Source of the DNA: Myxococcota bacterium
GTDB taxonomy: Bacteria > Myxococcota_A > UBA9160 > UBA6930
Direction: 5' to 3'
NCBI GenBank assembly: GCA_965223415.1
Contig: OZ245002.1
Span: forward strand, 3,104,001-3,168,000
DNA length: 64,000 bases
Under the pieces are notes generated by a model that made no database searches, was not told the origin of the DNA, and saw nothing but the letters and a program-made list of their open reading frames with translations. This document shows, piece by piece, positions 37,460-54,904 of the stretch (its first letter is position 1; every line of letters begins with the position of its first letter). Made by a program: the position numbers and the translations under genes.

Positions 37460-39997
37460 TCAGCGCATCGCCGTCTGGATCCGCGGCACGAAGAAGAACT
37501 CGCCGGGCTCCGCGTCGCCGTGCTTCATCTCCCGGTACTCGGGCACCTGGTCGTAGGGGATCATCGACTTCGCCCGGTAGGACACGCGGGCCGCCACGGC
37601 CTGGTGGAGCTGGCTGCCCCACATGATCTGGTTGTTGGCGCGCAGCACCGAGAGCAGCGCCTCCGCGAAGATCGAGTGCCGGCCGCCGCCGCCGTCGGGG
37701 ATCGGGATCAGCCCGCCCGCGGTGAGCGCCATCCGCACCCGCCGCTTGGCCATGGTGGACATCCAGTGGAGGCGCTCCTTCGAGGTGCGCGCGCCCTCGA
37801 TGGAGATGGCGACGTTGCGGGTGATCACGCCCGAGTAGCAGGAATCGGCCACGATCAGCACGTGCTTCGCGTTCATGGCGCCGACCTGGCGGGTCATCTC
37901 GTCGGTCGAGAGCCACAGCGCCGGGTTGTCGTGCTCCGCGTCGACGGGCAGCCAGTAGCCGCTGTGGGAGCCCTCGTCCAGGTGACCGTGGCCCGCGTAG
38001 TAGACCAGCAGGTTGTCCTTCGAGGTGAGCTTCTTGCGCAGCTGGGCCAGGGCCGTCATCAGCTGGTAGCGGTCGGCATCGAGGAGCGTCGTCACCTCGA
38101 AGCCGTAGCGGTTCGTGAGCACCTGGCCGATCTCCCGCGCGTCGGCGTGGGGTGTCTCCAGGTCGGGCATGTGCGCGTAGTTCTGGTTGCCGATCACGAG
38201 CGCGTGGTAGCTGCCGAACTCGATGCCCGGCGAATCGTCCGGCGGCGGCGCGGCCACCGGCGGGAGCCCGCGCCGCACGACGAAGCTGCGGCTCGACTGC
38301 TTGCCCTGCCGGTCGATCGCCACCAGGGTGACCCGCGTGCCCTCGTCGCCCACCTTCACGACGGGCCGGAACACCAGGCTCTCGTCGGTCTCGACCGGCT
38401 CGCCGTTCAGGGTCAGCGCCTCGAGGCCGGCGGGCGCGATCACCTGGCCGACGATCCGGCGCTCGGCCTCCTCGGCGGTCACCGATTCCTCGCCCCGGGA
38501 GGCCAGCGGCGGAAGCTGGGGATCGACCACGTGGATGGTCGGGCCGGCGATGTCGAGCTTCACCTGGCGCTCGGCTTCGGCGAGCTCCTGCTGGCGGCGG
38601 GCCAGGGCCGCCTCCAGCTCGTCGATCTGGGAGGCGAGCGCCTCCGAGCGCTGGGTCAGGCCCGCGAGGCGCTCTTCCTCGCTGCGGATCTCGGAAGCCC
38701 GCGCGGCGAGCTGCTCCTCCAGCGCGGCGAGCTCGCCGGTCCGGCCCTCGAGCTGCGCCGCCTGCTCCTCCGAGCGGCTCGCCAGGCCCTCGAAGCGCTC
38801 GCGCTCCTGGGCCAGCGCCTCGCGCTCGGCGGCCACGCCGCTGCGCTCCTCCTCGAGGGCGGCACGCTGGCCGTCGAGCTCGGCGCGGGCATCTTCCAGG
38901 GCCTTGCGATCGGCGTCGGTCTGCTGGGAGCGGGCGAAGCGCGCCTCGGCCTCGGCCTCGCGCTCCGTCACGCCGAGCAGCCGGTCGCTCGCAGCGCGAT
39001 CGCGCTCCGCCAGCCGGGCCTGCTCCCGGTCGAGCTCGGCGGCGCGCTCGCGAAGCGCCTGCTTCTCCTGGCGCAGCGATTCCTCCCGGGCGGCCAGGTA
39101 GCTGCGGTCATCCTCGAGCTTGGCGCGATCCCGGTCGAGCTCGCGCCGCTCGCTCTCGATCCCCGCGCGGTCGGCGGCCAGGTCGCCAGCGCCGGTGGCG
39201 GGCGCCTCGCCTTGCGAGGTCGGAGCCTCCGTCAAGCCAGCGAGCTCCTTCTCGAGCCGGCGCACGTCGAGGCGCAGGCGATCCGCCTCGTGCTTGCTCT
39301 CGGAGAGCTGGCTCTCGAGCTGGCTCACGTCCGTGCCGGCCCCTGGCGCCATCACGACGCGGCCTTCCAGCTCGTCGATCCCGTAGGAGTCGAGGTAGAG
39401 GCCGAGGGCGCGCTTCGGGTCCCGCGCGACGCCCAGCCCGCGTTCGTGGAGCCGCGCCAGGGCGCGCTTCGCCTGCCGGTGCCCCTGGCCCGCCGCGCGC
39501 TCGTACCAGCCGGCGGCCTGCCCGTAGTCGGGCGGCGTGCCGAGCCCCTGCTCGTAGATCTCGCCCGCGTAGTACTGGGCCGTCGGGTCGCCCTGCTCCG
39601 CGCGCTCGGTCCAGAACGCCAGCCGCTCCGAGTAGCCGGCCGGATCGTAGGCGACGTACTCTCCGCCGCGGATCTCGCAGTCGAGCTGGCTCGTGCTCAC
39701 GACCCGGGGAGGTGCCACGTAGATGGCCTTGCGACCGAGCTTCCGGGTCGTGCCGCGCAAGAGGCAGTCCACGATCTTGAGCCGGTCGATCGCGGCGGCG
39801 GCCGAGGTGGCCGGGCCGGAGGAGGCGGAGGGCGTGAGCTCCAGCGCCGGCGCGGACGCGACAGACCCGCTCGCCGCCGGGGGATCCAGCGCCACGATCG
39901 AGCGGGTCGCCACCGGCTTGCCACCCGCGCAGGCCAGCAGGGCCAGGGCCGCGAGGAGCGACAGGAAGGACAGGGCGGCGGTTCGGTGCTGGGCCAT
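37460..39997 (-). CDS. Lipoprotein with Sel1-like repeats, long coiled coil and C-terminal caspase-family (C14) peptidase
   Basis: Lipobox LLAC; AQYYAGEIYEQGLG and AAGWYERAAGQG Sel1 repeats; E/R/A-rich heptad region; ALVIGNQNY, YYAGHG (His), ADSCYSG (Cys). Start 39997 chosen on the signal peptide; the frame is open to 40174. Confidence 0.88.
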   Translation of the reverse strand: MAQHRTAALSFLSLLAALALLACAGGKPVATRSIVALDPPAASGSVASAPALELTPSASSGPATSAAAAIDRLKIVDCLLRGTTRKLGRKAIYVAPPRVVSTSQLDCEIRGGEYVAYDPAGYSERLAFWTERAEQGDPTAQYYAGEIYEQGLGTPPDYGQAAGWYERAAGQGHRQAKRALARLHERGLGVARDPKRALGLYLDSYGIDELEGRVVMAPGAGTDVSQLESQLSESKHEADRLRLDVRRLEKELAGLTEAPTSQGEAPATGAGDLAADRAGIESERRELDRDRAKLEDDRSYLAAREESLRQEKQALRERAAELDREQARLAERDRAASDRLLGVTEREAEAEARFARSQQTDADRKALEDARAELDGQRAALEEERSGVAAEREALAQERERFEGLASRSEEQAAQLEGRTGELAALEEQLAARASEIRSEEERLAGLTQRSEALASQIDELEAALARRQQELAEAERQVKLDIAGPTIHVVDPQLPPLASRGEESVTAEEAERRIVGQVIAPAGLEALTLNGEPVETDESLVFRPVVKVGDEGTRVTLVAIDRQGKQSSRSFVVRRGLPPVAAPPPDDSPGIEFGSYHALVIGNQNYAHMPDLETPHADAREIGQVLTNRYGFEVTTLLDADRYQLMTALAQLRKKLTSKDNLLVYYAGHGHLDEGSHSGYWLPVDAEHDNPALWLSTDEMTRQVGAMNAKHVLIVADSCYSGVITRNVAISIEGARTSKERLHWMSTMAKRRVRMALTAGGLIPIPDGGGGRHSIFAEALLSVLRANNQIMWGSQLHQAVAARVSYRAKSMIPYDQVPEYREMKHGDAEPGEFFFVPRIQTAMR

Positions 39998-40841
39998 GAT
40001 GGTGACTCTGCTCTGGTTGGGTGCGTTCGGTTGCGTCGCGTCCCCCTCCGAGCACGCCGAGCATCGTGCCGGGGAGATGGGACTCTCCGCAAGGACCATT
40101 CGCGGGGGTCCGTTCCTCCACCGGGTCTTTGTTGCGCCGCGGACCTCCGCGGCTCGGGAGCAGGGTCGCTCCACGGGCCCCTTCGGATCACGCGGACCTG
40201 GATCACCTGCCGATCGCTTGCACGTCTATCTCGGCGGCGACGGCTCCCCCCGTGGGGCGCTACGCCATCGCCCGCCCGACCCGACGCCGCGGCAGCTCCT
40301 GGTGCTCGAGCTGATGGCCCACGACCCCAACCCGAGCCTCCTTCTGGGGCGCCCATGTTATCACGGGGTCGAGACCTGCGAGCCGGTCCACTGGACCCTG
40401 GGCCGCTACTCCGAGGCCGTCGTCGAGAGCCTGGTGGCCGCCTTCAAGCGGGTCGTGTCACCCGACCGACCGGTCGTCCTGATCGGCCACAGCGGCGGCG
40501 GCACCCTCGCGATGCTGATGGCCCCGCGGCTCCCGCAGGTGGAGGCGGTGGTGACCGTCGCCGGCAACCTGGACGTGGCGGCCTTCACGGAGCATCACGG
40601 GTTCGGGGCGTTCACGGGGTCGCTGGACCCGGCGGCGTTGCCGCCGCTGCCGGAGCGGGTGCGGCAGATGCACCTGGTCGGCGGGCGGGACGAGGTGGTT
40701 CCGCCGGCGATCGTGGAGGCGGCCATTCGGCGGCAGCCGGGAGCGCGAAGGGTCAATTCGCCGGAGAACGGGCACAACGAGGGGTGGGTGACCGTCTGGC
40801 CCAACGTTCTCGAGGTGCTCGAGGATGAGCTCGGCGGGTAG
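39996..40841 (+). CDS. Alpha/beta hydrolase, probable lipoprotein
   Basis: AFGC lipobox-like; HVYLGGDG, GRPCY, GHSGGG nucleophile, AGNLD, D.VVP, GH. Start uncertain. Confidence 0.8.
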   Translation: MMVTLLWLGAFGCVASPSEHAEHRAGEMGLSARTIRGGPFLHRVFVAPRTSAAREQGRSTGPFGSRGPGSPADRLHVYLGGDGSPRGALRHRPPDPTPRQLLVLELMAHDPNPSLLLGRPCYHGVETCEPVHWTLGRYSEAVVESLVAAFKRVVSPDRPVVLIGHSGGGTLAMLMAPRLPQVEAVVTVAGNLDVAAFTEHHGFGAFTGSLDPAALPPLPERVRQMHLVGGRDEVVPPAIVEAAIRRQPGARRVNSPENGHNEGWVTVWPNVLEVLEDELGG

Positions 40842-40888
40842 CAGCTTCATCCGGAGCGTCTCGGACGCCGAGACCGAGCAGGCCTTCG

Positions 40889-41176
40889 AGGGGTGGTGAC
40901 GGTGCTGAGCCGGCCTGCGGTGTCGTAGCCCAGGTCGACGGTCTTGCCGTCCGGGCGGGCCACCTGGGTGAGGTTCTTGTCCAGGTCGCAGGTGAAGAAG
41001 GTTCGCGGGTCGTTCGGGTCCACCGGCGGGGGGTCGTACTCGCCTTCCTGGTCGAGGAGCGTGTAGCGGAAGACGTGGGCGGGCTGGCCGGGGGGCGTGA
41101 GGCTGGTGAGGTTGCCGCGCAGGTCGTAGGTGAAGTCGATGAAGCGGCTGTCGGGCAGCGTCTGGCGCGTGACGCC
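40889..41176 (-). pseudogene. Isolated YD-repeat (RHS/teneurin-like) fragment
   Basis: FTYDLRGNLTSLTPPG, TCDLDKNLTQVARPDG, LGYDTAGRLSTVTTP; ~95 aa with unrelated flanks. Confidence 0.75.
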
Positions 41177-41513
41177 GCAGGCAATGCCGCAGACGGCACC
41201 GACCAGCCCTCCAAACAGCCGTTCCCTACGTGTCATCAGTCCTCGCAGAAGCAGCCCGTCGCGGGATCGTCCTCCTGGTAGACGACCGTGGGCCCGGCGG
41301 AGCACACGTTCGCGTGCCCTCCGAGGACGAGGAGAGGGGCAGGATGGCAGTGGCGCCGTAGCGAGCGGCATGGCCACCTAGCGAAGGGGAGCCACGCACA
41401 TTAGTCGGCGGTCGAGGAGTAGTTCAACCGCAATGAGCGGCAAACACGCTCGGATTCCGACGGAAACCGCCGGATCGCGTCAGACCTACCCCATTCGGGG
41501 GATACGATCCGCC

Positions 41514-42926
41514 CTAGAAGTCGAACCTCGCGCCGACGGTCAACGCGTACTGGTCGACGTAGCTGTCGCCGAGCCGCGTATCGAAGTCGATGAAGGCGAC
41601 CATGCCGCTGGTCAGCACCATGCTCACGCCGGCGCCGACGTTGAACACGTCGCGGTCCGGGCTCTGGGCGCGGAGGCTCAGGCGGGTGCGGTTCAGGTCG
41701 GCAGTGAAGCGGGCGTTGATCGTGCGGGAGTCGTTCTCGAACTCGTGCTCCCACTCGCCGCGCAGGTAGGGCGTGACGATGCCGCTGCCGGTCGAGATGT
41801 CGTAGCTGAGGGTCACGCCGAGGTCCGTCGTCAGGGACGTGATCGACTGGCCCTCGTAGGTGAGGTTCAGGCCCTGAGCACCGCTCTCCCGGGCGCCGTC
41901 GGTATCGACGCCGATGTAGTTCACCTGCAGGTAGGGGTCGATGCCGAGGGCGCCGCTGTCGAGGTTGGCCCCGGCGGCGACGCTCAGGCCCCACTGGTCG
42001 CCGCTCGGGTCGCTGCGCGCCGTCCGGTTCACCGTCGGGTAGACGATGCTGCGCTCGAGGCTGTAGTCCAGGTAGGAGTAGGTCGCGATCGCGTCGACGT
42101 AGAAGGCGTCCTGCTGCCAGGTGCCGTAGGCGGAGAGGCCGTAGGCGTTGCGGTCGAGCTCGCCGGCGCCCCCGTCGAAATCGTTGTCGACGCGGGAGTA
42201 GTTGAACGCCAGGCCGCCCACGAGCGGCTCGCTGAACCGGTAGTCGACACCGACCACCGCGCCGAGGGCGTCGAAGTCGAAGCCGACCTCCTCGTCCCGG
42301 CCGTCGAAGTCGCCCCAGGAGTACAGGCCGTTGCCCCAGAGCCCCCACTTGCCGAGCAGGTCCTGATCCCCCGCGGCGGACCGCTCGCGCAGGGCGCGCT
42401 CGATGTCCTCGCCCTGCAGCGAGCCCCCGTAGGCGTCCCGCAGGTCGAGGCCCGCGAACTGGATGCGCGGGCCGCCTTCGCGCAGGGCCACGAGCCGGTT
42501 GCCGATCACCTCCAGGTTGCGGATGGAGGTCTGGGTCGAGAGGGTGCCGGAGGCCGCCGCCTGGCCGTGGGCCAGGTCCTCGAGGGCCTCGTTGATCTCC
42601 GGGTCCGAGATGTCGAGCAGGCCCGGCACGACGAGCTCGCTGCAGCGATCGAAGAGGTCCTGGGTATCCGCCCCCCAGCCGCGGGTGCCGACGATCGGTG
42701 CCAGGTCGCCGCAGGTGGTGAGGACGAAGTCGCCGCTCAGGCTCTGGAGGCGGCTCTGGCCGCCGAGGGAACCCAGACTCCGCGGAGAGGGCGCCTGCCC
42801 TGCGGGAGCCCCGCCACCGCCACCGCCTCCACCACCGCCGCCCTGGCCGTAGGCCCCGCCGGCGAGGAAGATGCTCGCGATGATGAGCAGGAGCTGAATC
42901 CGGATCGCCCGCGCGCGGACCACCAT
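41514..42926 (-). CDS. Autotransporter-type outer-membrane beta-barrel with very short N-terminal domain
   Basis: Signal peptide, poly-Gly tract, short Cys-pair region, barrel motifs (WGLWGNG, GVDYRF, TPYLRGEWEHEF) and terminal Phe (ARFDF). Confidence 0.88.
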   Translation of the reverse strand: MVVRARAIRIQLLLIIASIFLAGGAYGQGGGGGGGGGGGAPAGQAPSPRSLGSLGGQSRLQSLSGDFVLTTCGDLAPIVGTRGWGADTQDLFDRCSELVVPGLLDISDPEINEALEDLAHGQAAASGTLSTQTSIRNLEVIGNRLVALREGGPRIQFAGLDLRDAYGGSLQGEDIERALRERSAAGDQDLLGKWGLWGNGLYSWGDFDGRDEEVGFDFDALGAVVGVDYRFSEPLVGGLAFNYSRVDNDFDGGAGELDRNAYGLSAYGTWQQDAFYVDAIATYSYLDYSLERSIVYPTVNRTARSDPSGDQWGLSVAAGANLDSGALGIDPYLQVNYIGVDTDGARESGAQGLNLTYEGQSITSLTTDLGVTLSYDISTGSGIVTPYLRGEWEHEFENDSRTINARFTADLNRTRLSLRAQSPDRDVFNVGAGVSMVLTSGMVAFIDFDTRLGDSYVDQYALTVGARFDF

Positions 42927-42969
42927 GTTGACCTCCCTGGGACGACCTCGGCCCGGGCCGTCGCGGGGG

Positions 42970-42999
42970 ATCCTATACCGGGGAAATCCCCAGTGTCAA
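42970..42999 (-). promoter_or_regulatory. Sigma70-like promoter of the autotransporter with a palindromic spacer
   Basis: Minus strand TTGACA-CTGGGGATTTCCCCGG-TATAGGAT; GGAGG RBS before ATG 42926. Confidence 0.65.
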
Positions 43000-43148
43000 A
43001 GGGGGTTACGTCGGATCCTGCGTGGAGATGGGGCACTCCGCCGCCAGGCCCAGTGCCCAGAGACCGGCCAGGCCGAGCCCCAGCAGGAGCCGGGTCGAGC
43101 GCTCCGCCACCAGCCCGGCGCCGTCCCTGGCGCCCGGAAGCCCCGCCG

Positions 43149-43454
43149 GGCGGCGATCTCGAGGGGCTCCTCGAGGAAGCGCTCGACGATCTGCGCCTCG
43201 CCCTCGACTCCTTGCCCCCGGACCAGGCGGACCCGCTGACCCTGCTCGGCCTCCTGCGGCCGCGCCTGGAGCGACGGGTGCGGAGCGCGTCGCTCCGTCT
43301 CGACTGGCGGGTGAGCGACGCCGGGGAGGGCCGGGGCATGGCCAATTTTCGCCACCGCGCCGAGGAGCTCGGCGCCGACCTGCGGATCGAGTCGACCGAC
43401 GCGGGGACGCGCCTGCGGATGGTCTTTCCCGGGCCTGCCGCTACCGCCCCATGA
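43149..43454 (+). pseudogene. Internally deleted remnant of a NarX-like sensor histidine kinase
   Basis: EALDDLRLALDSL...LRPRLERR...LDWRV joined directly to SDAGEGRGMANFRHRAEELGADLRIES..GT; H-box and N-box absent, no convincing start. Confidence 0.65.
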
Positions 43455-43770
43455 AGCGGAGGTGATCCTCGCCCTGGAGGTGGTCGGGCTCGACCCAGTA
43501 GTCGCCGCGAACCGCAGGCAGGAGGATGTCCCGGGCGGCCTGGTCGTCGCCGCCCAGGACCAGCCAGGCGCCCGTGCCGAGCACCGCTCCGCCCGCGGCG
43601 GTGAACGCCTTGATCGGCGTGTAGAGCAGGCTGGCGCCCACGGCGGCGATCCACCAGCCGGCGCCTTCCGTTTCGGCGGCGGCAGGCCGGGGGTGAGCGA
43701 CGAGCACGAGCGCCAGCAGGGCGGCGCAGAGGAGGCCCAGGGGCCTTCGGTTGGTTCGGAGTCGGCGCAT
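43441..43770 (-). CDS. Small exported/membrane hypothetical protein
   Basis: Signal peptide (AAA|E), Gly/Ala-rich hydrophobic hairpin, AVRGDYWVEPDHL tail; lies downstream of the repeat-protein genes. Confidence 0.7.
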   Translation of the reverse strand: MRRLRTNRRPLGLLCAALLALVLVAHPRPAAAETEGAGWWIAAVGASLLYTPIKAFTAAGGAVLGTGAWLVLGGDDQAARDILLPAVRGDYWVEPDHLQGEDHLRFMGR

Positions 43771-43820
43771 CGGAGGTCCTTCCTGTCGGGTTCGGAGGTC
43801 GGGGTTCCGAGAGAAGGGGT

Positions 43821-43851
43821 GGGCCCCGATCCCGCGAGGGGACCGGGGCCC
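43821..43851 (-). terminator. Hairpin downstream of repeat-protein copy 1
   Basis: GGGCCCCG...CGGGGCCC GC-rich stem ~25 nt after the stop. Confidence 0.5.
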
Positions 43852-43875
43852 GGGGTGGGGGAGGGAGCGGACGAG

Positions 43876-44199
43876 CTAGCGGTTGCGGCCGGAGACGGCG
43901 CCCACGGTGCCGACGTTCGACACGGCGGTCGCGCGGTTGGCCGTGGCCTTGGTCGTGATGTCCCGGCTGCGGGTCTTGATCTTGACGTCGCCCTCGAGGC
44001 GCGAACCGGCCATCACGGAACCCACGTGGGCCTCGGCGAGCGCGCGGTTGGCACTGGCCTCGGTGTAGATGTTCCGGGTCCGGGCGTCGATGTCGATGTC
44101 CTTGCTCTTGGTGAAGAGGTCGCCCAGGAAGGCCTGCGCGCTCGCGGCGTAGCCGAGGACCAGGGCGGAGGTGACGAGGATCTGGAAGAAGCGGCGCAT
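43876..44199 (-). CDS. Small secreted two-repeat protein, copy 1 (putative fibre/amyloid subunit)
   Basis: Hidden at the end of track ORF 43876..45261; own RBS AAGGAG and ATG 44199; 107 aa; signal peptide ending AQA. Confidence 0.9.
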   Translation of the reverse strand: MRRFFQILVTSALVLGYAASAQAFLGDLFTKSKDIDIDARTRNIYTEASANRALAEAHVGSVMAGSRLEGDVKIKTRSRDITTKATANRATAVSNVGTVGAVSGRNR

Positions 44200-44310
44200 G
44201 ATGTTGATCTCCTTGGATCGGTTGGGTTGAGGTGGATCGCAACGCGCGATCACGGAGAGGGGTCGCGCTGGCGCGCGCTTCGGATCACGAACCGGCAGGA
44301 AACCGTCGCC

Positions 44311-44351
44311 AAAAAAGAGAAGCGGCGCCGATCCCGGAGGATCGGCGCCGC
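44311..44351 (-). terminator. Intrinsic terminator after copy 2
   Basis: 13-bp perfect stem GCGGCGCCGATCC/GGATCGGCGCCGC followed on the minus strand by TTCTCTTTTTT. Confidence 0.85.
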
Positions 44352-44378
44352 CCTTGGGGGTCGGCTGGCGAGCGGGAG

Positions 44379-44702
44379 CTAGCGGTCGCGGCCCGAGACC
44401 GCGCCCACCACGCCCACGTTCGTCACGGCTGTCGCGTTGTTCGCGCTGGCCTTCGTCGTGATGTCGCCGGTGCGCACCTTGATCTTGACGTCGCCCTCGA
44501 GCCGGGCGCCGGCCATCACCGAACCCACGTGGGTCTCGGCGAGCGCGCGGTTGGCACTGGCCTCGGTGAAGATGTCGCCGGTGCGGGCGTCGATGTCGAT
44601 GTCCTTGCTCTTGGTGACGAGGTCGCCCAGGAAGGCGGACGCGCTGGCGGCGTAGCCCAGGACGAGGGCGGAGGTAATGAGGATCTGGAAGAAGCGGCGC
44701 AT
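44379..44702 (-). CDS. Small secreted two-repeat protein, copy 2 (diverged, 16 of 107 residues differ)
   Basis: RBS AGGAG; signal peptide ending ASA; same 10+37+37 mature layout. Confidence 0.9.
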   Translation of the reverse strand: MRRFFQILITSALVLGYAASASAFLGDLVTKSKDIDIDARTGDIFTEASANRALAETHVGSVMAGARLEGDVKIKVRTGDITTKASANNATAVTNVGVVGAVSGRDR

Positions 44703-44838
44703 GATGGTGATCTCCTAGGGATCTGAAGGGTGGATTGGATGGACCGCGGCCCTGCGGTCCATCGCTGAGGAGTCGGCGCTGGCTCTGTCTCGGATCACGC
44801 GTGACGCAGAAACGCAAGATCCGACCCCGGAATGGGAA

Positions 44839-44868
44839 GCGGCGCCGACCCCGGAGGATCGGCGCCGC
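44839..44868 (-). terminator. Hairpin after copy 3, homologous to the one after copy 2
   Basis: Same stem with one change that gives a U-G wobble on the minus-strand transcript; weak U tail. Confidence 0.65.
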
Positions 44869-44894
44869 CTTGGGGGTCGGCTGGGGAGCGGGAG

Positions 44895-45218
44895 CTAGCG
44901 GTTGCGGCCGGAGACGGCGCCCACGGTGCCGACGTTCGACACGGCGGTCGCGCGGTTGGCCGTGGCCTTGGTCGTGATGTCCCGGCTGCGGGTCTTGATC
45001 TTGACGTCGCCCTCGAGGCGCGAACCGGCCATCACGGAACCCACGTGGGCCTCGGCGAGCGCGCGGTTGGCACTGGCCTCGGTGTAGATGTTCCGGGTCC
45101 GGGCGTCGATGTCGATGTCCTTGCTCTTGGTGAAGAGGTCGCCCAGGAAGGCCTGAGCGCTCGCGGCGTAGCCGAGGACCAGGGCGGAGGTGACGAGGAT
45201 CTGGAAGAAGCGGCGCAT
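44895..45218 (-). CDS. Small secreted two-repeat protein, copy 3 (protein identical to copy 1)
   Basis: RBS AAGGAG, ATG 45218; 107 aa. Confidence 0.9.
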   Translation of the reverse strand: MRRFFQILVTSALVLGYAASAQAFLGDLFTKSKDIDIDARTRNIYTEASANRALAEAHVGSVMAGSRLEGDVKIKTRSRDITTKATANRATAVSNVGTVGAVSGRNR

Positions 45219-45379
45219 GATGTTGATCTCCTTGGATCGGTTGGGTTGAGGTGGATCGCAACGCGCGATCACGGAGAGGGGTCGCGCTGCCCCGGGGGCC
45301 GGATCACCGACCGGCAAGAAAATCCGCCCGGATCGTTGTATGAAAGGGGGCCCACGGCGGGATGGAGGGCGGAGGGTCG

Positions 45380-46273
45380 ATGGCGGAAGGCGCGGCAGCG
45401 GTCGGCGATCTCCTCGACCGCGCCGTCGCGGGCCAGGAGACCGCCCTCCTCCAGCTGGCTCGGCGAGTCACCTCCCTCATCGAGGGATGGGGCGCCTACA
45501 CCGTCCAGAGCGACTGGCGGATCCTCACCCAGGAGGCCACCCAGCAGGCCCTGGACGGCTGGCGGAGCAGCCGCCGGGAGGCCCAGGCCGCCCAGTTCCT
45601 GGAGGGGATCGTCCGAAACCGCTTCTGGGGCGAGGTGTTGGACGAGATGTCCCAGAACAACCCGCGGGCCGGCGAGCTCCTCTTCCCCACCATCCGCCGG
45701 CTCCTGGCCCGCTGGGACGGCTCCCGGCGCTTCGAGGCCAGCTGGGACGACGTCGTCCAGGAGGCCACCCACCAGCTCTGGGAGCGCTGGGCTACTGGCG
45801 AGGTGGAGCGGCCCTGGTCCCTCCTGTGCACCATCGCCAAGCGGCGCTTCCTCGATCAGACCCGGAGGGCCAAGGCCACGGAGGATCCGGAGATCCTGGA
45901 CGACCTCTCTGAAGAGGGCGAGGAATCCCCCGGGGGAGAGGTGTTCGCCCAGCAAGCGCTGGACGTGCTAGAGCCCGAGGAGCGGGGCATCGTCGTGCGG
46001 ATGGACATCGAGGGGCAGACCCGCGTCGAGATCGCGAGGGAGCTCGAGATGACCGAGGGCCAGGTGCTCTCGATCCGGCGCGCCGGGCTTCGGCGGATCT
46101 GGCGCTGGGCGGGGGCCGACCTTCCGCCGGAGATCCGGGACGTCTGGGAGGCGATGTTCAAGGGCGCCAAGCGGGCGGGCCCGGAGCAGGTGGCCGCCCA
46201 GCTGGGAATCACCCCCGGGGAAGTCGAGCAGCGGGTCGAGCAGGCCCGGGTGCTCCTGGGGCTGGCGGGATGA
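45380..46273 (+). CDS. ECF-like sigma-70 family factor with duplicated region 2- and region 4-like segments
   Basis: WDDVVQEA...LCTIAKRRFLD (region 2); LEPEER...EIARELEMTEGQV (region 4); GGAGG before ATG 45380. Confidence 0.8.
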   Translation: MAEGAAAVGDLLDRAVAGQETALLQLARRVTSLIEGWGAYTVQSDWRILTQEATQQALDGWRSSRREAQAAQFLEGIVRNRFWGEVLDEMSQNNPRAGELLFPTIRRLLARWDGSRRFEASWDDVVQEATHQLWERWATGEVERPWSLLCTIAKRRFLDQTRRAKATEDPEILDDLSEEGEESPGGEVFAQQALDVLEPEERGIVVRMDIEGQTRVEIARELEMTEGQVLSIRRAGLRRIWRWAGADLPPEIRDVWEAMFKGAKRAGPEQVAAQLGITPGEVEQRVEQARVLLGLAG

Positions 46274-46364
46274 GGGGTCCGGAATTTCGCGATCGGGTGA
46301 TCCGAATGGGGGGGGTGGCGCGACCTTGGTGCGAATGCCCCCACCTCATCTCGGGAGTGAGCCG

Positions 46365-47159
46365 ATGAGCGAACCCAATGACCCTCGCCTCGAGGGCGAC
46401 GACGCCTTCGAGGACGAGCTCGACCGCGCCACCGTCCTGCGGCTGCGCGGCGAGGACCCCCGCGCCGACCGCTGGCAGCCGGAGGACCAGGATCTGGTCC
46501 AGTTCGCGCGGAACCCCCGCGCCCTGGCGCCGGAGCTGCGCGCGCGGATCGACGCCTACCTGGAGAAGCACCCGGCCGAGCGCGACGCCCTGGCCGCCTT
46601 CGAGGTGCTCGCGCCGGCCCCGCCGGTGGCCGAGGCCGCCGAGGCGCCGTCGCTCCTGGCCCGCCTCACCTCTTCCCTCGCCGCCCTGGTGCCCGCTCCC
46701 CGGGCCGTCGCCTCCGCCGCGGCGCTCTTCCTGGTGGCCGGCGTGGGCTTCCTCCTGACCCAGGAGCCGGACGAGCCCGTCTGGCGGGGCCCGGACACGC
46801 CGATCGAGGATCCGATCGGCGGCCCGGACACCGGGCACCCGCCCCTCGACCTGGCCGAGATCGAGCTGGTCCCCGGCGTCGTGATGCCCCTGGAGGCCGC
46901 CTCCCTGCCCACGGCGGGCGAGGTGCTGCTGATCCTCGTCCTGCCCGGTGAGCCCCCGGAGGCGCCCGTCGAGCTGACCCTCCTCCGGGAAGGCGCCGCC
47001 GAGCCCCTGGCCCAGCGGAGCGCCCCCGCCTCCGAGGGGCCCGCCCCCGCCGTCCAGCTGCGTGTACCCGCCGAAGACCTCGAGCCCGGCGCCTACCGGG
47101 TGGAGGTCTTCGAAGGGCCTGCCGTCCCGCCGGTCGAGTTCCTCTTCGAGGTGAGGTGA
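46365..47159 (+). CDS. Putative single-pass membrane anti-sigma factor
   Basis: Directly after the sigma gene; N-terminal helical domain, TM (AAALFLVAGVGFLL), periplasmic Ig-like tail (LEPGAYRVEV). Confidence 0.65.
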   Translation: MSEPNDPRLEGDDAFEDELDRATVLRLRGEDPRADRWQPEDQDLVQFARNPRALAPELRARIDAYLEKHPAERDALAAFEVLAPAPPVAEAAEAPSLLARLTSSLAALVPAPRAVASAAALFLVAGVGFLLTQEPDEPVWRGPDTPIEDPIGGPDTGHPPLDLAEIELVPGVVMPLEAASLPTAGEVLLILVLPGEPPEAPVELTLLREGAAEPLAQRSAPASEGPAPAVQLRVPAEDLEPGAYRVEVFEGPAVPPVEFLFEVR

Positions 47160-47239
47160 TCCGGGCGCCCCCGTCGGGCGACTCTCCCCAAGAGAGCCCG
47201 CGGGAATCCCCCCGCGGCTCCCGCCCGGAAGGAACGGCC

Positions 47240-47554
47240 ATGCTGAAGCGCATCCTCTCCATCCTCGCCCTGACCGGGGTCGCCTGCGGCGGCACGCCGT
47301 CGGCGGCCGACGACGGCAAGCCGGTCACGGTCTGCCGGCACGACGCCCAGGGCACCGTGGCCGTCACGAACATCGGCAGCGTGGGCCCCGGCTCCGGCAG
47401 CACGCGGGTTCGCGTCGTGACCGGCAACCGGACGACCGTTGTCGATCCCGAGGGGGAGTGCGTCTTCACCGACGAGCCGCCGCGCCGCCATCCCCTCCGA
47501 GGGGGGGAGGCGAACTTCCCCCGGACGCCCGACGCTTCCGAGGTGCGGAGGTGA
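47240..47554 (+). CDS. Small secreted protein/lipoprotein
   Basis: AAGGA RBS; MLKRILSILALTGVAC signal; AVTNIGSV motif; Cys pair in the mature part. Confidence 0.7.
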   Translation: MLKRILSILALTGVACGGTPSAADDGKPVTVCRHDAQGTVAVTNIGSVGPGSGSTRVRVVTGNRTTVVDPEGECVFTDEPPRRHPLRGGEANFPRTPDASEVRR

Positions 47555-47616
47555 TCCGAGTCGCCGCCTCGCGCGACTCCTCTCGGGGCACGCAGCCCCC
47601 AGCAAAGGAGACCGAC

Positions 47617-47913
47617 ATGGGACGCAAACTCGCCGCCTTCGCCATCATTCCGATGATGCTCTTCGCGGGATCCGCCACCGCGAAGATCAACGAGGGCAAC
47701 ACCTCCGCCAAGAGCAAGCTGAACGTCCTGAAGGCCAAGACGTCGCACCGCCTCAAGGCCGATGAGGGGCAGGACCCCTGCAACCAGAGCCTGAACGCGG
47801 GCAACGTGATCATTCCCGAGGGCACCCGCGCTCCCCGCGAGGTGACCGTCGTGATCGAGGGAGACGTGACCAATGTTGGTTCGATCGTTGGCTCCGCGCG
47901 CTGCCGCCGCTAG
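47617..47913 (+). CDS. Small secreted protein
   Basis: AAGGAG RBS; signal peptide ending ATA; EVTVVIEGDVTNVGSIV; Cys pair. Confidence 0.78.
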   Translation: MGRKLAAFAIIPMMLFAGSATAKINEGNTSAKSKLNVLKAKTSHRLKADEGQDPCNQSLNAGNVIIPEGTRAPREVTVVIEGDVTNVGSIVGSARCRR

Positions 47914-49453
47914 CCGCCTCTTCATGGCCGCCGCCCTGGCGCTGCTCTTCGGAGCCTGCGCCACTCCCGGCAACCAGGCTGCCTACACCAGCCGCACGCC
48001 GGGGCTCGACCCCCAGACGACCCGCACGGTCTACTCCGGCGCGCTGGCCTGCATGGACGACCTGCTCCAGTCCTACGGGCCCCAGGGCACGATCATCACC
48101 AGCGTCGGCATCCCGGACGCGACCGGTCAGGTCCAGGTGGGCTCCCGCGACATGCTGATGTCGGCGATCTCCGACATGACACGGCGGAGCGGTGCCTTCA
48201 CCTACGTCGACCTCGACGTCACTCGCGAGGAGTCGCTGGCCATCCACGGCAACTCGCCGGACAAGACCTCGCTCTGGCCCACGTACCTGATCCGCGGGAC
48301 GATCTCGGGCCTCGACGAGAGCGTCATCGACGTGTCGAAGGGCCTGAGCTTCGGCGTGGAGCTCAGTGAGAACGATGCCGCCGCGGCCTACGCCAACAGC
48401 CGCACCTCGTCGGTGGTGTCCCTCGACCTTTTCATCGTGCGCTCGAAGGACCTGGTGCTCCTGCCCGGCCTCAAGGCGAGCAACTCGCTGGCGATCAGCC
48501 GCGCGGGCTCGGCCAGTGAAGCCGGGATCACGATCAAGCAGGTGGGCCTCGACTTCAGCGTCGAGCAGGAGGAGTCCGAGAGCCTGGCTCACGCGGTGCG
48601 CACGCTGATCGAGCTCGGCACTGTCGAGCTGATCGGCAAGTTCGCCCAGGTGCCCTACTGGCGCTGTCTCCAGGTCGAGGGGACGAACCCCGTGGTGATG
48701 AAGGAGGCGGCCGACTGGTACGCCGACATGGACGAGGACGAGAAGATCCTCTTCAGCCAGCGCGTGCTGATCGCGCGGGGCGAGTTCGCCGGGCCCGCCA
48801 CCGGCGAGCTGGACGCCGCCACCAAGGCCGCCATCGTCCGCTACCAGCAGGTGAACGGGCTGATCCCGACCGGTCGGCTCTCCTTCGAGCTCTACCACTC
48901 GATGCTCGGCAACGATCGCCCTGCCGAGGTGGGGGAGCCGGTCACGTTCATCGAGCAGGACGAGACGCCCGACCCGGTGGCGGACCAGGTGCCCGTGCGC
49001 GAGCCCCTGCTCCTGACGCTCACGTCGGCGCGTGGATCCCAGCCGAGCTTCGCGCCGAACGAGATGCTGAGCATCCAGGTCGGCGCGTCGCGGGACGCCT
49101 ACGTGTACTGCTACTACCGGGACGGCGCCGATCGCATCTCGCGCATCTACCCGAACCAGTTCCAGCCCGATCCCTATCTGCCGGCGGGCCAGTACGTAAC
49201 GGTTCCGCCCGTCGACGCCGCGGGACACCCCACGCGCTTCGGCATCCGCTTCGAGCATCCCGGCGCGGCGGAGGAGGTCGCCTGCCTCGCCTCGGACCGG
49301 GAGGTCGGCATCTGGCTGCCCCGGACGCTGAAGCAGCGGGATCTCGCCCCGCTGCCCGTCGGGAGCCTGGCCGAGCTCGAGGCCGCCTTCGAAGAGCTCG
49401 ACGGCGAAGGCCTCGTCCGCGCGCGGCTGCCCATCGAAGTGACCCGCGAGTAG
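47873..49453 (+). CDS. CsgG/HfaB-like lipoprotein + peptidoglycan-binding domain + DUF4384-like domain
   Basis: Lipobox FGAC; ALACMD...IPDATG...DMLMSAIS...IRGTISGLD...VVSLDL resembles HfaB/CsgG; TGELDAATKAAIVRYQ..NGL.PTG is PG_binding_1-like; RDAYVYCYY..G...RIYPN is DUF4384-like. Alternative start 47924. Confidence 0.75.
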   Translation: MLVRSLAPRAAAASRLFMAAALALLFGACATPGNQAAYTSRTPGLDPQTTRTVYSGALACMDDLLQSYGPQGTIITSVGIPDATGQVQVGSRDMLMSAISDMTRRSGAFTYVDLDVTREESLAIHGNSPDKTSLWPTYLIRGTISGLDESVIDVSKGLSFGVELSENDAAAAYANSRTSSVVSLDLFIVRSKDLVLLPGLKASNSLAISRAGSASEAGITIKQVGLDFSVEQEESESLAHAVRTLIELGTVELIGKFAQVPYWRCLQVEGTNPVVMKEAADWYADMDEDEKILFSQRVLIARGEFAGPATGELDAATKAAIVRYQQVNGLIPTGRLSFELYHSMLGNDRPAEVGEPVTFIEQDETPDPVADQVPVREPLLLTLTSARGSQPSFAPNEMLSIQVGASRDAYVYCYYRDGADRISRIYPNQFQPDPYLPAGQYVTVPPVDAAGHPTRFGIRFEHPGAAEEVACLASDREVGIWLPRTLKQRDLAPLPVGSLAELEAAFEELDGEGLVRARLPIEVTRE

Positions 49454-49513
49454 CGCGGCTGCTCATCTGCACCCGCGAGCAACCCCTCACCCATCCTTCC
49501 TGGAGACACGATC

Positions 49514-50068
49514 ATGAGCTTCCGAATGCGACGGCCGGCGTGGGTCGCTGGCCTGATCCTGGGTCTGCTGCTGGGCCTTCCGCTCGGCGCAGCCGCCCAG
49601 GACACCCTCCCGACCGCCCCGGTCCGGATGTACGACGAGCCCCTCTCGGCCGACGAGCTGGCCCAGAAGCTCTTTCCGCCCAAGCTCCGCTCGATCGTCC
49701 CGGTCGAGGAGCAGCCGAAGCCCGAGGTGATCGGCTACGCGATCCAGTTCGGCTTCGACTCGGCGGAGCTCCTGCCCGCGGCGAAGCCCTACCTGGACGA
49801 GCTCGGCAAGATGATGAACCTGGAGCGGCTCTCGAGCGCGAGCCTGGTCGTCGAAGGCCACACGGACGCGATCGGCTCCGAGGACTACAACCTCGACCTG
49901 TCGCTGCGACGGGCCCAGGCCGTGGCCGGCTACCTGGCGAAGGCGCACCGCATCGACCCGAACCGCCTCGTGACCCAGGGCCGCGGCGAGAGCCGGCCGC
50001 TGCCGGACCGGGCGCCGACCGATGGCCAGAACCGCCGCGTCCAGTTCGGCGGCCTCGGCGCTCGTTAG
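49514..50068 (+). CDS. OmpA/MotB C-terminal domain protein, secreted
   Basis: IQFGFDSAEL, VEGHTDAIGSEDYNLDLSLRRA, GRGESRP, NRRVQF. Confidence 0.93.
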   Translation: MSFRMRRPAWVAGLILGLLLGLPLGAAAQDTLPTAPVRMYDEPLSADELAQKLFPPKLRSIVPVEEQPKPEVIGYAIQFGFDSAELLPAAKPYLDELGKMMNLERLSSASLVVEGHTDAIGSEDYNLDLSLRRAQAVAGYLAKAHRIDPNRLVTQGRGESRPLPDRAPTDGQNRRVQFGGLGAR

Positions 50069-50084
50069 GTCAGGGAGCCTACCC

Positions 50085-52292
50085 GTGGTCCGTAGCCTCC
50101 TGGTTGCCCTCGCCGCACTCGCGGCCCTGTTCGGTAGCGTCGCTCCCGGCTGGGCCGCGAAGCGGGCCCTGATCGTCGGGATCAACGACTACCGGGGCGA
50201 GAACAGCGGTGGGCGCTGGCGCGACCTCCGCGGCGCCGTGAACGACGCCGAGGCCATGCGCTCGCTGCTGGTCTCCCGCTTCGGCTTCGCGGGGGACGAC
50301 GTGGTGCTGCTGCGCGACGCCGAGGCGACCCGGGAGCGCATCCTCGCCGAGATCGAGGGGCACCTGGTCGCTCCGGCGAAGCCCGGCGACGTCGCCTTCT
50401 TCCACTTCGCCGGTCACGGCTCCCAGGTGCGCAACGCCCAGGGCCAGGAGCTCGATCGGCTGGACGAGACGATCGTCCCCGCCGATTCGCGGCTGGGCGC
50501 GCCGGACATCCGCGACAAGGAGCTGCGGGTCCGCTTCAACGACGTGCTCGACCGGGGTGCCGACCTGGTCGCCGTCTTCGACAGCTGCAGCAGCGGCTCC
50601 ATCCTGCGCTCGCTCCAGGCGGTGCGCTTCCTGCCGCCGGGCGACGCGCCGGCTCCCGCCCTGGCGCCGGAGCGCCGGGCGCCGCCGGAGGAGCGCGGCG
50701 CGCTGCTGCTCTCCGCCGCCTCGAGCGGGCTGCCTGCCGCCGAGACGAAGGACGCCGCCGGCCGGCCTCGCGGCGCCCTGAGCTTCGCCCTGATCCGCGC
50801 CCTGCGGGAGGCGGCGCTGGACGAGCCCGCGGACCAGCTCTTCCTGCGCGTGCGCAGCGCGCTGCTGGCCGAGGACCTGGGCCAGGCCCCGGTGCTCGCC
50901 GCCACCTCCGAGCGTCGCGCCCGCCCGCTGCTCGGCGGGGAGGCGCAGGCGGCGGGCGCGACCCGGGTCGGCGTCCTGCGCGTCCGCAGCGACGGCCTCG
51001 TCGAACTCGACGCCGGCGCGGCCAGCGGCCTGAACCCGGGGGCCGAGCTGGTCTCGAACCGCATTGGCGATACGCGCCGGCTGCGCGTGGTCGAGGTGCC
51101 GGGCGTCGCCCTGGCCCTGGCCCGGGTGAGCGGCGGCGATGCGGCGTCGCTCCAGCCGGGCGATCTCTTCCGTCTCGACCGTTGGAGCGCCCCGGACGGC
51201 GCCGCGCTGCGCATCCTGCTGCCCGAAGCGGCGCCGCCCGCCCAGGGGAAGGCGCTTCACGCCGCCGCCGCGGCACTGCGCGTCGAGGCCGCCGCCCGGG
51301 GCGTGACCTGGGTCGAGGATCCGACCACCCAGCGCCCGACCCACCGCCTGGTGTGGCGGGCGGCCGGCGGCTGGATGCTTCGCGGGCCCGACGCCGAGCA
51401 GCCCGTCGGTGCGCTCGACCCGGCGCGCGCCGCCTCCCTCGTCTCCGGGCTGCCGCAGGGCGCGAGCCTGCTCGTGGAACTTCCCCCCGCCCCGGGCCTG
51501 CGCCGCGCCCTCGCCGAGCGGGCCGCGGCCGCCGGAGGCTCCATCGAGCTGGTCGGCCCGGAGGCGGCCCACTTCGCGCTCGTCGGCGTCCTGCGCGGCG
51601 ACGGCGTTCACCACGCCTGGGTGCGGCCCGGGGCTTCGCTTCGCCGTGAGGTCGGCGGGCTCCCGCCGCGCAGCGACTGGACGAAAGCCCAGGGTGCGAG
51701 CGCTGCCCTCGGCGCCTCCCTCGACGCGCTGCTGCGCATCCGCTCGTGGCTGACGCTTCCGGCGCCGCCCGACGAGGGGCGCTTCCCCTACCGCCTCGCC
51801 CTGCGCCGCGAGAGTGACGGCCGCCGCGTTCCCGGCGGCGCCGTGCGCGCCGGCGAGCGCTACCGCATCGCCCTCGAGGCCGAGCGCCCGGGGCCGCGCT
51901 CATCGATCGAGCCGCGCTACGTCTACGTCTTCGCCATCGACGCCTTCGGCCGCCAGGCGCTGGTGTTCCCGACCGCTGACCGCGGCAACGCCGAGAACCG
52001 CATGCCGCCCCCGGGCGCCCTCGGCGCCCCCGCGCCGCCGGTGCTTCCCGTCGGCTCGATCGAGATCGCGCCGCCCTTCGGCCACGAGACCCTGGTCATG
52101 GTCACCAGCGCCACGCCCTTGGCCGACCCCCGGGTCCTCGAGGGCCGCGGCGTCCGCACCCGCACCGGCTCCGCCCTCGAGCAGCTGCTCGGCTGGGTCG
52201 GTACCCCGTCCCGCGCGCCCCGTACCGCCACCCCCACCAGCTGGGGCATCCAGCGGCTCTCCCTCGTGAGCCTGCCCCGTCAAGGAGAGTGA
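50085..52292 (+). CDS. Secreted caspase-family (metacaspase-like C14) protease with C-terminal DUF4384-like domain
   Basis: Signal peptide; KRALIVGINDY, LRGAVNDA, HFAGHGSQ (His), DETIVPAD, FDSCSSG (Cys); YVYVFAID..G...LVFP and IAPPFGHETL at the C-terminus. Confidence 0.9.
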   Translation: MVRSLLVALAALAALFGSVAPGWAAKRALIVGINDYRGENSGGRWRDLRGAVNDAEAMRSLLVSRFGFAGDDVVLLRDAEATRERILAEIEGHLVAPAKPGDVAFFHFAGHGSQVRNAQGQELDRLDETIVPADSRLGAPDIRDKELRVRFNDVLDRGADLVAVFDSCSSGSILRSLQAVRFLPPGDAPAPALAPERRAPPEERGALLLSAASSGLPAAETKDAAGRPRGALSFALIRALREAALDEPADQLFLRVRSALLAEDLGQAPVLAATSERRARPLLGGEAQAAGATRVGVLRVRSDGLVELDAGAASGLNPGAELVSNRIGDTRRLRVVEVPGVALALARVSGGDAASLQPGDLFRLDRWSAPDGAALRILLPEAAPPAQGKALHAAAAALRVEAAARGVTWVEDPTTQRPTHRLVWRAAGGWMLRGPDAEQPVGALDPARAASLVSGLPQGASLLVELPPAPGLRRALAERAAAAGGSIELVGPEAAHFALVGVLRGDGVHHAWVRPGASLRREVGGLPPRSDWTKAQGASAALGASLDALLRIRSWLTLPAPPDEGRFPYRLALRRESDGRRVPGGAVRAGERYRIALEAERPGPRSSIEPRYVYVFAIDAFGRQALVFPTADRGNAENRMPPPGALGAPAPPVLPVGSIEIAPPFGHETLVMVTSATPLADPRVLEGRGVRTRTGSALEQLLGWVGTPSRAPRTATPTSWGIQRLSLVSLPRQGE

Positions 52293-52293
52293 G

Positions 52294-52581
52294 ATGTTCC
52301 GCAAGCTCGCCCTGATCCTGCTCGCCTGCGGCGCGCTCGCCCTCCCGGCCAGCGCCCAGCCGCCCTGCAACACCAGCAAGGGCTCGACCCAGGCGATGGA
52401 GTGTCTGGCGAAGAAGCTCCACGATCTCGAGTCGGAGCTGCGACGCGCCATCGTCCTGTTCGAGCGCCACCACTGCCCGGAGGGCTGGATCGCCCTCGAG
52501 GAGGCCAAGGTAGGGGAGATCCGCGGGACGTTCCGGAACCCGAGCTTCCCGCTGGTCTACTGCAAGAAGCTCGACGGCTAG
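52294..52581 (+). CDS. Small secreted Cys-containing protein
   Basis: AGGAG RBS; signal ending ASA; short coiled coil then F....CPEGW motif and terminal YCKK. Confidence 0.7.
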   Translation: MFRKLALILLACGALALPASAQPPCNTSKGSTQAMECLAKKLHDLESELRRAIVLFERHHCPEGWIALEEAKVGEIRGTFRNPSFPLVYCKKLDG

Positions 52582-53213: not shown

Positions 53214-53405
53214 CTACACGGGAAGGCTGTAGGAGGGGGTCGGGGTCCGGGGCGCCCGCGGCGGCTCGCCGGACATGCGGTCGAAGCGTCCCGCCCCGGC
53301 GAAGGAGCGCCGGCAGCCCGTGCACTCGGGGTCCCGTTCGCCGACGACGGTCAGGCAGTGCAGGCAGTAGCAGGGAGAGGTCTCGTTCGGGTTCGGGAAC
53401 GTCAT
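53214..53405 (-). CDS. Small zinc-ribbon-like protein
   Basis: AGGAGG RBS; MTFPNP...CYCLHC...CTGC; 63 aa. Confidence 0.6.
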   Translation of the reverse strand: MTFPNPNETSPCYCLHCLTVVGERDPECTGCRRSFAGAGRFDRMSGEPPRAPRTPTPSYSLPV

Positions 53406-53478
53406 GATGTCGGGCCTCCTGCCGAGGAGTCGAGCGACGAGCCGATCCGGATCACCCGGATGGCCGGCGCTTCGGAAT

Positions 53479-53817
53479 TCAGGCCGCGAAGGGCGCGCCC
53501 TCGCGAATCGAGTCGACGACGTCGGCGAACGCCGGGTCGAAGGCGTCGACGTGGTCGGACCACCAGCGGAGCACGCCCGGGGTGAGGACCAGCCACGCCA
53601 GGACCCGATGGATCTGGGTCCAGACCGTCTCGTCGAGGGCGCTCCGCTGGAGGTGGATCTCCTGGCACAGGGAGAAGAGGCCCCGCAGGTGGGCACTCAG
53701 GCGCCGGGCGTCCTCGTCGGACAGGCACTCGGACCCGGCGAGCTCGGCCAGCAGCCGGTGCAGGTCCGGGTTGAGCTGGAGCCGGCGAAGCAGTCGGTGG
53801 CTGGCGAGGCGTCCCAT
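53479..53817 (-). CDS. Hypothetical protein
   Basis: GGAG RBS; helical; PGVLRWW...FDPAF pattern; may be N-terminally truncated. Confidence 0.55.
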   Translation of the reverse strand: MGRLASHRLLRRLQLNPDLHRLLAELAGSECLSDEDARRLSAHLRGLFSLCQEIHLQRSALDETVWTQIHRVLAWLVLTPGVLRWWSDHVDAFDPAFADVVDSIREGAPFAA

Positions 53818-53974
53818 ATCGGTGTCTCCGTGGGGCGGGCCATCCGCGGCCCGCGTGCCCAGGGGTCGGGACAGGCGCGGTTTCGGATCACCGCGGAAGC
53901 GGGGCCTCCGGAGTGGCCCGAAGCGGTGATCCGGGGCGCTCTCGTGCGCGACTCCTGGTCACAGGAGCCCCGCC

Positions 53975-54658: not shown

Positions 54659-54721
54659 AAAAGCCGGGCCGGGTGATCCGGGCCGGGGCCCACCGCGACT
54701 CCTCGGTGGGAGGACACGACG

Positions 54722-54904
54722 ATGACGCTTTCAGCCCTTTCCAACAGCGCGAACCAGCCCGTTCCCACCACCCTGCTCGAGCTCGTCACGGCGCTCCAGG
54801 AGCTGACCGACAACGAGGAGCTGACCGAGCTGCTGGCCCGCGATCTCGTCAACTCCGGACGCGTGGTCCTCACCGGCAACTTCCGAGGCTGCACACTGAA
54901 CTAG
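54722..54904 (+). CDS. Small hypothetical protein (60 aa)
   Basis: GGAGG RBS; TTLLELVTAL...LVNSGRVVLTGNFRG; coding-like codon usage. Confidence 0.65.
   Translation: MTLSALSNSANQPVPTTLLELVTALQELTDNEELTELLARDLVNSGRVVLTGNFRGCTLN

Follow-up and report, generated by a model that had tools for sequence, protein, structure and literature searches.

We analysed a gene cluster in a 64,000-nt window, the whole stretch of DNA introduced above, from the genome of a Myxococcota bacterium (a single contig of 5.8 Mb with a GC content of ~70%). An earlier note, made from the sequence alone, had read the block at 37460..52581 as a system for secreted fibres or functional amyloid, and every part that it named was found in place. 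The cluster is real and conserved, and we consider it probable that it encodes a secreted fibre, with beta-solenoid subunits of an unnamed family that are exported and assembled much as in curli. The gene order is A, B, an RHS fragment, C, D, the three subunit genes E1 to E3, an extracytoplasmic function (ECF) sigma factor with its partner, F1, F2, the CsgG-like lipoprotein gene G, H, I, and J (Table 1); signal peptides and lipoboxes were assigned by eye. The linkage of subunit and channel genes and the CsgG fold stood up as parts of the earlier reading, which also gains support from the predicted stacking of the subunits and a shared promoter-like motif, while a beta-barrel at its core, a sigma factor as a general feature, and subunits that are "not Q/N-rich" did not stand as worded.

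The three small repeat genes that were expected are present, each encoding 107 residues. E1 and E3 differ at 1 of 324 nt, and E2 differs by 41 nt. In three of four sequencing runs (possibly from the window's own sample), a 189-nt contig fitting both E1 and E3 is covered about twice as deeply as the unique contigs next to it, and the E1/E3 duplication looks real. Mature E2 consists of two 37-residue repeats with 19 of 37 positions identical. Sequence searches placed the 107-residue proteins in an unnamed family of secreted proteins with repeats of 35 to 37 residues, a period found in 60 of the 68 members where it could be measured (out of 108), with approximately 2 to 7 repeats and mostly two. 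A C-terminal pair of cysteines is carried by 45 of 88 complete family members and is lacking in the E copies of the window. Alignment A4 is a hand-picked set of 44 subunits of the window type, alignment A2 left out P0005, P0007, P0010, P0011, P0022, P0031, P0035, P0037, P0040, and P0041, and two further subunit types (A6 and A7) were built from genes adjoining G. Both of these types match the window type at hhalign probabilities of 91 to 92%, signal peptides included. The window's subunits are indeed not rich in Gln or Asn, but some of their relatives are. No match was returned by a pattern scan of the genome contigs with the first subunit alignment, and the Atlas clusters for E2 (best 0.89) and F2 (0.93) were unnamed only, their low recognition values making them leads only. 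A whale AHNAK2 match in the family search was dropped as a repeat artefact. Five subunit genes stand in tandem in genome G007. In the window, GC-rich hairpins at 44322-44351 and 44839-44868 match each other, lie 3' of E2 and E3, and are terminator-like; each subunit copy may therefore be its own transcription unit.

The E2 monomer model is all-beta, with high confidence for the mature part. A fold search of the PDB gave no match at an E value of 0.001 or below and a VIA-wide search none at a Z score of at least 2; the weak rows included ice-binding proteins, bactofilin, HET-s (E 6.1, not significant), and FapC, and this lack of a match does not by itself show a new fold. The complex prediction proposed in the earlier note as a check on the small proteins supported self-stacking of E2. 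Four copies of residues 28-107 scored 0.73 against 0.00 for the best of three controls, and the runs shared at least 73% of contacts with a predicted local distance difference test (pLDDT) value of at least 76. Among solved pairs, 20 of 30 attained the mark used for this score, as did 1 of 23 single chains; these counts are only rough for four copies. In the predicted interface, repeat 2 of one copy docks on repeat 1 of the next, head-to-tail and in register, and most of the best contacts are offset by exactly 37 residues (81-44, 94-57, 83-46, and 74-37). The geometry is that of a predicted open-ended beta-solenoid filament.

The lipoprotein G is the candidate channel. It had been described as CsgG/HfaB-like, and it does match both models below their cut-offs, with E 0.023 for Pfam CsgG (score 14.4, cut-off 20.8) and E 3e-5 for HfaB (23.3 bits, cut-off 300); it is thus assigned to CsgG by fold and not by Pfam score, and is not called an HfaB ortholog. 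Lack of a CsgG fold had been set beforehand as a ground for rejecting the proposal, and both Foldseek and VIA-align recovered the fold. The AlphaFold2 model, based on 63 homologs (alignment A3, 63 of 120 listed) in which the lipobox cysteine is invariant, has a mean pLDDT of 78 and two long beta-hairpins. Foldseek ranked membrane-bound CsgG first (E 7.4e-8), and the first eight rows of VIA-align were all CsgG (Z 14.4 to 12.0, next fold at Z 9.3; top row with a root-mean-square deviation of 7.5 over 213 residues). The model resembles membrane-inserted CsgG more than the pre-pore form and far more than PelC or FlgT, consistent with a secretion pore. PDB sequence searches with A3, A4, A6, and A7 gave no useful relative, with CsgG only at E 0.16 and no FapC match. 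Neither curlin nor CsgF genes were found in the four genomes of the phylum that carry G (G000, G007, G055, and G089), so G is without a known substrate there.

Unlinked homologs had likewise been named in advance as evidence that would count against the proposal; subunit and CsgG-like genes were found in the same genomes, mostly at neighbouring loci. Among 301 genomes of the phylum the subunit profile matches the same four genomes as G, and the two genes lie within ~5 kb of each other in each. In a sample of 151 genomes from an alphaproteobacterial order, the same two carry both G and the local subunit type; in the centre genome of that sample they are on different contigs. The iterated subunit profile had no reversed-sequence match at E<1e-3 and none under 1e-3 in its own genome outside the cluster. 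A scan of one genome per species recovered 466 relatives of G, of which the best 80 loci were analysed. These are mostly from Alphaproteobacteria, with some from Rhodocyclaceae, Gallionella, and Myxococcota, and include two that duplicate relatives already counted. An OmpA-C gene accompanies G at 60 of these 80 loci, a caspase at 52, a subunit at 51, F2 at 34, the barrel at 5, the hydrolase at 5, and the sigma pair at 2; for the 49 loci with full flanks the counts are 44 (OmpA-C), 39 (caspase), 35 (subunit), and 23 (F2). Where the flank lacked a subunit (29 loci), 27 genomes have one outside it, either farther along or at another place in the genome (the window type in 7, type A6 in 12, and type A7 in 8), and 2 have none. 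Subunit type also tracks the clades of the G tree, in which kin share labels.

A promoter-like motif, GTGATCC-N16-CGACY, was traced from a repeat family and precedes A, E1, E2, E3, F1, F2, and four genes beyond 52581; none was found before B, C, or D. TGATCC is a -35 element of RpoE/ChrR-type sigma factors. Exact matches fall within the cluster in 10 of 18 cases genome-wide in G000, 8 of 12 in G007, 6 of 10 in G055, and 0 of 12 in G089, and close homologs of the sigma factor occur only in G000, G007, and G055 among the 301 genomes. From this co-occurrence we infer that the sigma factor may recognise the motif. A matrix built from 16 sites in other genomes gave the cluster sites ranks 1 to 6, with ten within the top 17, a test that is only partly independent because the training sites were chosen with the window-derived pattern. 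The sigma factor scores 49.3 against TIGR02937 (cut-off 42.9), and regions 2 and 4, an adjacent putative anti-sigma gene, and the motif are all present, as in the ECF class; approximately 100 residues precede region 2, and an extra helix-turn-helix-like stretch lies at 269-296. Duplicated domains were considered and found no support in self-BLAST. The proposed dedicated ECF sigma thus has a cluster-specific motif in its favour but is no general feature, being present at 2 of 80 loci and in three genomes of the phylum. A CHASE2 cyclase is near 37 of the 80 loci and a Crp-like gene near 33; these stand in place of the sigma factor at many loci, and the regulator is therefore exchangeable.

Two C14 proteases were predicted, and both have intact His/Cys motifs (GH near 670 and DSC near 718-720 in A; GH near 132 and DSC near 187-189 in I). 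Both motifs are kept in 50 of 61 caspase open reading frames (ORFs) neighbouring G, and a hydrophobic stretch precedes 41 of 42 N-terminal caspases. The OmpA-C protein, the outer membrane beta-barrel, and the divergent sigma pair are also present as described, but the barrel, which is of the autotransporter type, is accessory and no core counterpart of FapF. The two small proteins said to share a motif, F1 and F2, both carry VTN[IV]GS[VI]. F2 lies just upstream of G at 26 of the 34 loci that have it, and by analogy it is a candidate adaptor or nucleator.

Collectively, these results suggest the following model. The mature subunit would fold into a stack of two 37-residue rungs. Its last rung would dock, in register, onto the first rung of the following subunit, so that the growing filament stays open-ended. 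Subunits would traverse the inner membrane by the Sec route and presumably exit via a ring of G; the peptidoglycan-binding domain of G and the OmpA-C protein H may both hold this ring to the wall. More tentatively, F2 (and also F1), which contain a partial rung each, could serve as adaptor or nucleator at the channel in the manner of CsgF or CsgB, and the exported caspases could act in the periplasm to trim or remove subunits or parts of the machinery, as is thought for FapD. In this lineage, the sequences support a scheme in which the ECF sigma would switch on the whole set through the motif, and tandem subunit copies, each with its own promoter site, may raise the dose.

Several observations weigh against a secreted fibre of this kind. 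The fibre is a prediction from genes and models, and secretion, amyloid character, and a caspase role are proposed for the cluster. The predicted solenoid stacking may reflect resemblance to solved filaments, and four copies lie beyond the calibration. The window's subunits contain no Gln and 5.6% Asn and thus lack the N/Q ladders of curli and FapC, and what connects the N/Q-rich types to them by homology is the hhalign result given above, signal peptides included. The repeat matches of F1 and F2 are weak (probabilities of 30.5% and 25.7%). The pLDDT of G falls below 50 at 156-158 and 213-235, parts of both hairpins, and a pore is therefore deduced only indirectly; its core fold is also found in rings, those of FlgT and PelC, that do not form pores on their own. 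Caspases are absent from 10 of 49 full-flank loci, with no cleavage site identified, and the 80 loci, being the best of 466 relatives, include many kin.

The same channel and subunits might instead yield a short surface anchor or coat rather than long biofilm fibres, after the model of the Caulobacter holdfast anchor HfaA/HfaB/HfaD, where HfaA and HfaD are the subunits, or of a coat on resting cells. The weak HfaB match of G fits this, the terminal Cys pair of about half the family members could cap a stack, and many alphaproteobacterial loci have the CHASE2 cyclase and Crp, the type of regulator that, in the part of PMC10187061 concerned, controls R. centenum encystment. The window's subunits, however, lack the Cys pair and are open-ended in the stacking model, no polysaccharide export family is among the annotated conserved neighbours, and the cyclase and Crp are only possible orthologs of the encystment genes. 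That the relatives correspond to the R. centenum gcy/cgrA or S. meliloti cyaD1/clr cluster is likewise conjecture; the text of PMC4681086 contains none of the words "caspase," "OmpA," "curli," or "CsgG." We regard the anchor as unlikely, though it deserves some weight. Somewhat less probable again is a periplasmic, wall-attached scaffold, with G as a non-pore ring and caspases remodelling the polymer. Peptidoglycan-binding domains on both G and H and the low hairpin confidence of a fold common to non-pore rings would suit it, but the two long hairpins and the closer resemblance of G to membrane-inserted CsgG than to the pre-pore form or PelC/FlgT argue otherwise.

The HET-s domain is two-repeat, and the two-rung architecture of the subunits, together with the intact caspase dyads and the nonsignificant HET-s row of the fold search, invites the idea of a signalling polymer that templates and activates exported caspases as an envelope-stress or self-destruct switch. 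The subunit profile matches neither caspase, however, tandem copies with separate promoter sites suit a bulk structural protein, and the secretion channel would be left unexplained; we hold this to be very improbable. Scarcely credible is the idea that the small genes simply travel along within an envelope island of variable content. The block does contain such passengers (the RHS fragment, D, and J), and the cluster is patchy in the phylum (4 of 301 genomes), but the exact co-occurrence of G and subunits in two samples largely refutes it, and subunit type follows the G clades (where kin share labels) and a promoter motif is common to the genes.

Judged by subunit motifs and partner genes, the cluster is not curli, Fap, or Hfa, and it would appear to work like curli. 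It shares with curli a CsgG-fold lipoprotein and signal-peptide-bearing subunits with imperfect repeats, predicted to stack as a beta-solenoid, an architecture described for curli in passages of PMC12822426. The curli repeat is ~20 residues long and, in PMC12822426, present 3 to 52 times, whereas repeats here have 35 to 37 residues and often number two; G adds peptidoglycan-binding and DUF4384 domains, and OmpA-C and caspase partners are linked. Curlin_rpt matched 0 of 44 subunit members and curlin 0 of 4 genomes. CsgF (PF10614) was found in 0 of 4 genomes with a positive E. coli control; CsgF is also absent from many alphaproteobacterial curli systems, as noted in part of PMC3521004. No window protein matched CsgE, CsgC, or CsgD in the Pfam scan, and no genome-wide search was made for these.

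Long repeats and a linked cysteine protease recall Fap. FapD is a C39 protease, whereas both proteases here are Peptidase_C14. The channel is CsgG-type, and the barrel, at 5 of 80 loci, is not FapF. FapB and FapC nearly always have three repeats in the relevant passages of PMC12822426, whereas here there are mostly two. A portion of the FapC motif given in an excerpt of PMC12392863, N-x-A-[AV]-G-x-x-N, is present in all 9 aligned members of the A6 clade, which may reflect homology or convergence. The full FapC core motif is found in 0 of 63 aligned members (0/44, 0/9, and 0/10), and the part-motif is confined to the nine of A6, with 0 of 44 of the window type. The likeness to Hfa lies in the HfaB match (23 bits, cut-off 300), and the neighbours differ; in a library scan whose inclusion of HfaA and HfaD models is unconfirmed, no subunit matched an Hfa name. 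Signal-peptide caspases with OmpA were noted in 14 metacaspase operons in a passage of PMC3501461, the text of which lacks "CsgG" and the metacaspase passages of which name no substrate, whereas the caspases of this study belong to a cluster with a defined channel gene and subunit genes. The system was not found described in titles and abstracts among the matches listed, a scope outside which subscription journals and supplements lie; export of the CsgG type is apparently represented here by a variant not described before, together with a new family of subunits.

High-resolution knowledge of secreted bacterial amyloid comes mainly from curli and Fap, according to PMC12822426. A bolder proposal, which we put forward only tentatively and with more doubt than the fibre itself, is a third class of bacterial functional amyloid, combining two-rung subunits of 37-residue repeats, a wall-tethered CsgG-like pore, and periplasmic caspases for maturation or quality control. 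If true, the subunit family would range from repeats free of N/Q to Fap-like ones with N/Q ladders, linking curli-type export to Fap-type repeats, and would provide the first defined substrate for exported bacterial caspases. For an orphan CsgG-like channel, which has 466 relatives in one genome collection, the cluster supplies a candidate substrate, and it gives exported caspases a concrete context; cultured, non-pathogenic carriers are among the loci (Azospirillum, Skermanella, Propionivibrio, and Roseicella). The two-rung subunit, ~80 residues without Gln, could serve fibre design as a minimal scaffold, and nanopore work may find a new CsgG-type pore of interest.

Table 1. Genes and promoter-like sites of the cluster and its continuation (positions in the window).
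Feature	Position	Strand	Remarks
A	37460..39997	-	Lipoprotein with Sel1 repeats and a long coiled coil, ending in a C14 caspase domain (Pfam); G007 and G055 clusters have the same architecture
B	39996..40841	+	Alpha/beta hydrolase that starts with a lipobox-like segment; accessory, divergent from A; G007 has a homolog (46% identity) arranged in the same way; 5/80 loci
Promoter-like site before A	40164..40191	-	
C	41514..42926	-	Autotransporter-type beta-barrel, short passenger, accessory; Pfam E 1e-65; 5/80 loci
E1	43876..44199	-	Secreted two-repeat subunit, 107 aa
Promoter-like site before E1	44261..44288	-	
E2	44379..44702	-	Secreted two-repeat subunit, predicted head-to-tail stacking
Promoter-like site before E2	44771..44798	-	
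E3	44895..45218	-	Subunit, protein identical to E1
Promoter-like site before E3	45280..45307	-	
ECF-type sigma factor	45362..46273	+	Unusually long (303 aa)
Promoter-like site before anti-sigma	46297		Variant, 17-nt spacer
Putative anti-sigma	46365..47159	+	One membrane segment by eye; homologs adjoin sigma in G007 and G055; function inferred from position
Promoter-like site before F1	47156..47183	+	
F1	47240..47554	+	Small exported protein, part of one subunit-like repeat; weak (hhalign probability 30.5%, E 0.26)
Promoter-like site before F2-G-H-I-J run	47551..47578	+	
F2	47617..47913	+	Conserved small exported protein; basic short segment, then Cys-flanked part-repeat
G	47873..49453	+	CsgG-fold lipoprotein with PG_binding_1 and DUF4384; candidate wall-tethered secretion channel
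H	49514..50068	+	Exported OmpA-C (peptidoglycan-binding) protein; 60/80 loci
I	50022..52292	+	Exported; N-terminal C14 caspase, weak C-terminal DUF4384; homolog in G007
J	52294..52581	+	Small exported protein, membership doubtful; no homolog in related loci
Small CxxC..CxxC protein	53214..53405	-	Behind promoter-like site 53428-53455; in all three sigma-bearing clusters
112-aa ORF, alpha/beta hydrolase, 60-aa ORF	within 53479..54904		Each behind a promoter-like site
Promoter-like sites of three genes past 53479	53864-53891; 53926-53953; 54673-54700	-; +; +	

The catabolic setting noted earlier was borne out, as the flanks encode a CoA-transferase, acyl-CoA dehydrogenases, and an enoyl-CoA hydratase. 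The co-regulated unit continues past the end given earlier, 52581, to ~54904. The three genes in 53479..54904 likely belong to the same regulon but are at most putative members of the conserved neighbourhood of G. The 60-residue ORF at 54722-54904 has a paralog elsewhere in G000 and homologs apart from G in G007, G055, and G089, and belongs to no Pfam family. The block additionally holds the RHS fragment at 40847-41206, a lipoprotein hydrolase, and the small genes D and J, for both of which a counterpart was found in 0 of 80 related loci. The RHS-repeat fragment is isolated, lacks any longer match elsewhere in the genome (E<1e-5), and is probably a remnant. An open stretch at 43128-43454 resembles a histidine-kinase end by eye and has no Pfam match. 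The starts of A and B overlap head-to-head at 39995-39998, placing the promoter-like site of A inside B, and the divergent pair is kept in G007.

DUF4399 genes are present at 31 of the 80 loci. Three loci from Azospirillum and Acetobacteraceae (L059, L038, and L092) carry DUF4399 genes, another protein with DUF4384, and a fusion of a caspase with Ig and FGE-sulfatase domains. On a plasmid of Azospirillum lipoferum 4B (L091, 15885-30696), a subunit, G, and OmpA are followed by FHA, PP2C, and Ser/Thr kinase genes, with no annotated caspase. Next to the cluster in Propionivibrio (L069, 6041-7534) are genes for LpoB-like lipoproteins and for a fusion of a caspase with DUF1425.

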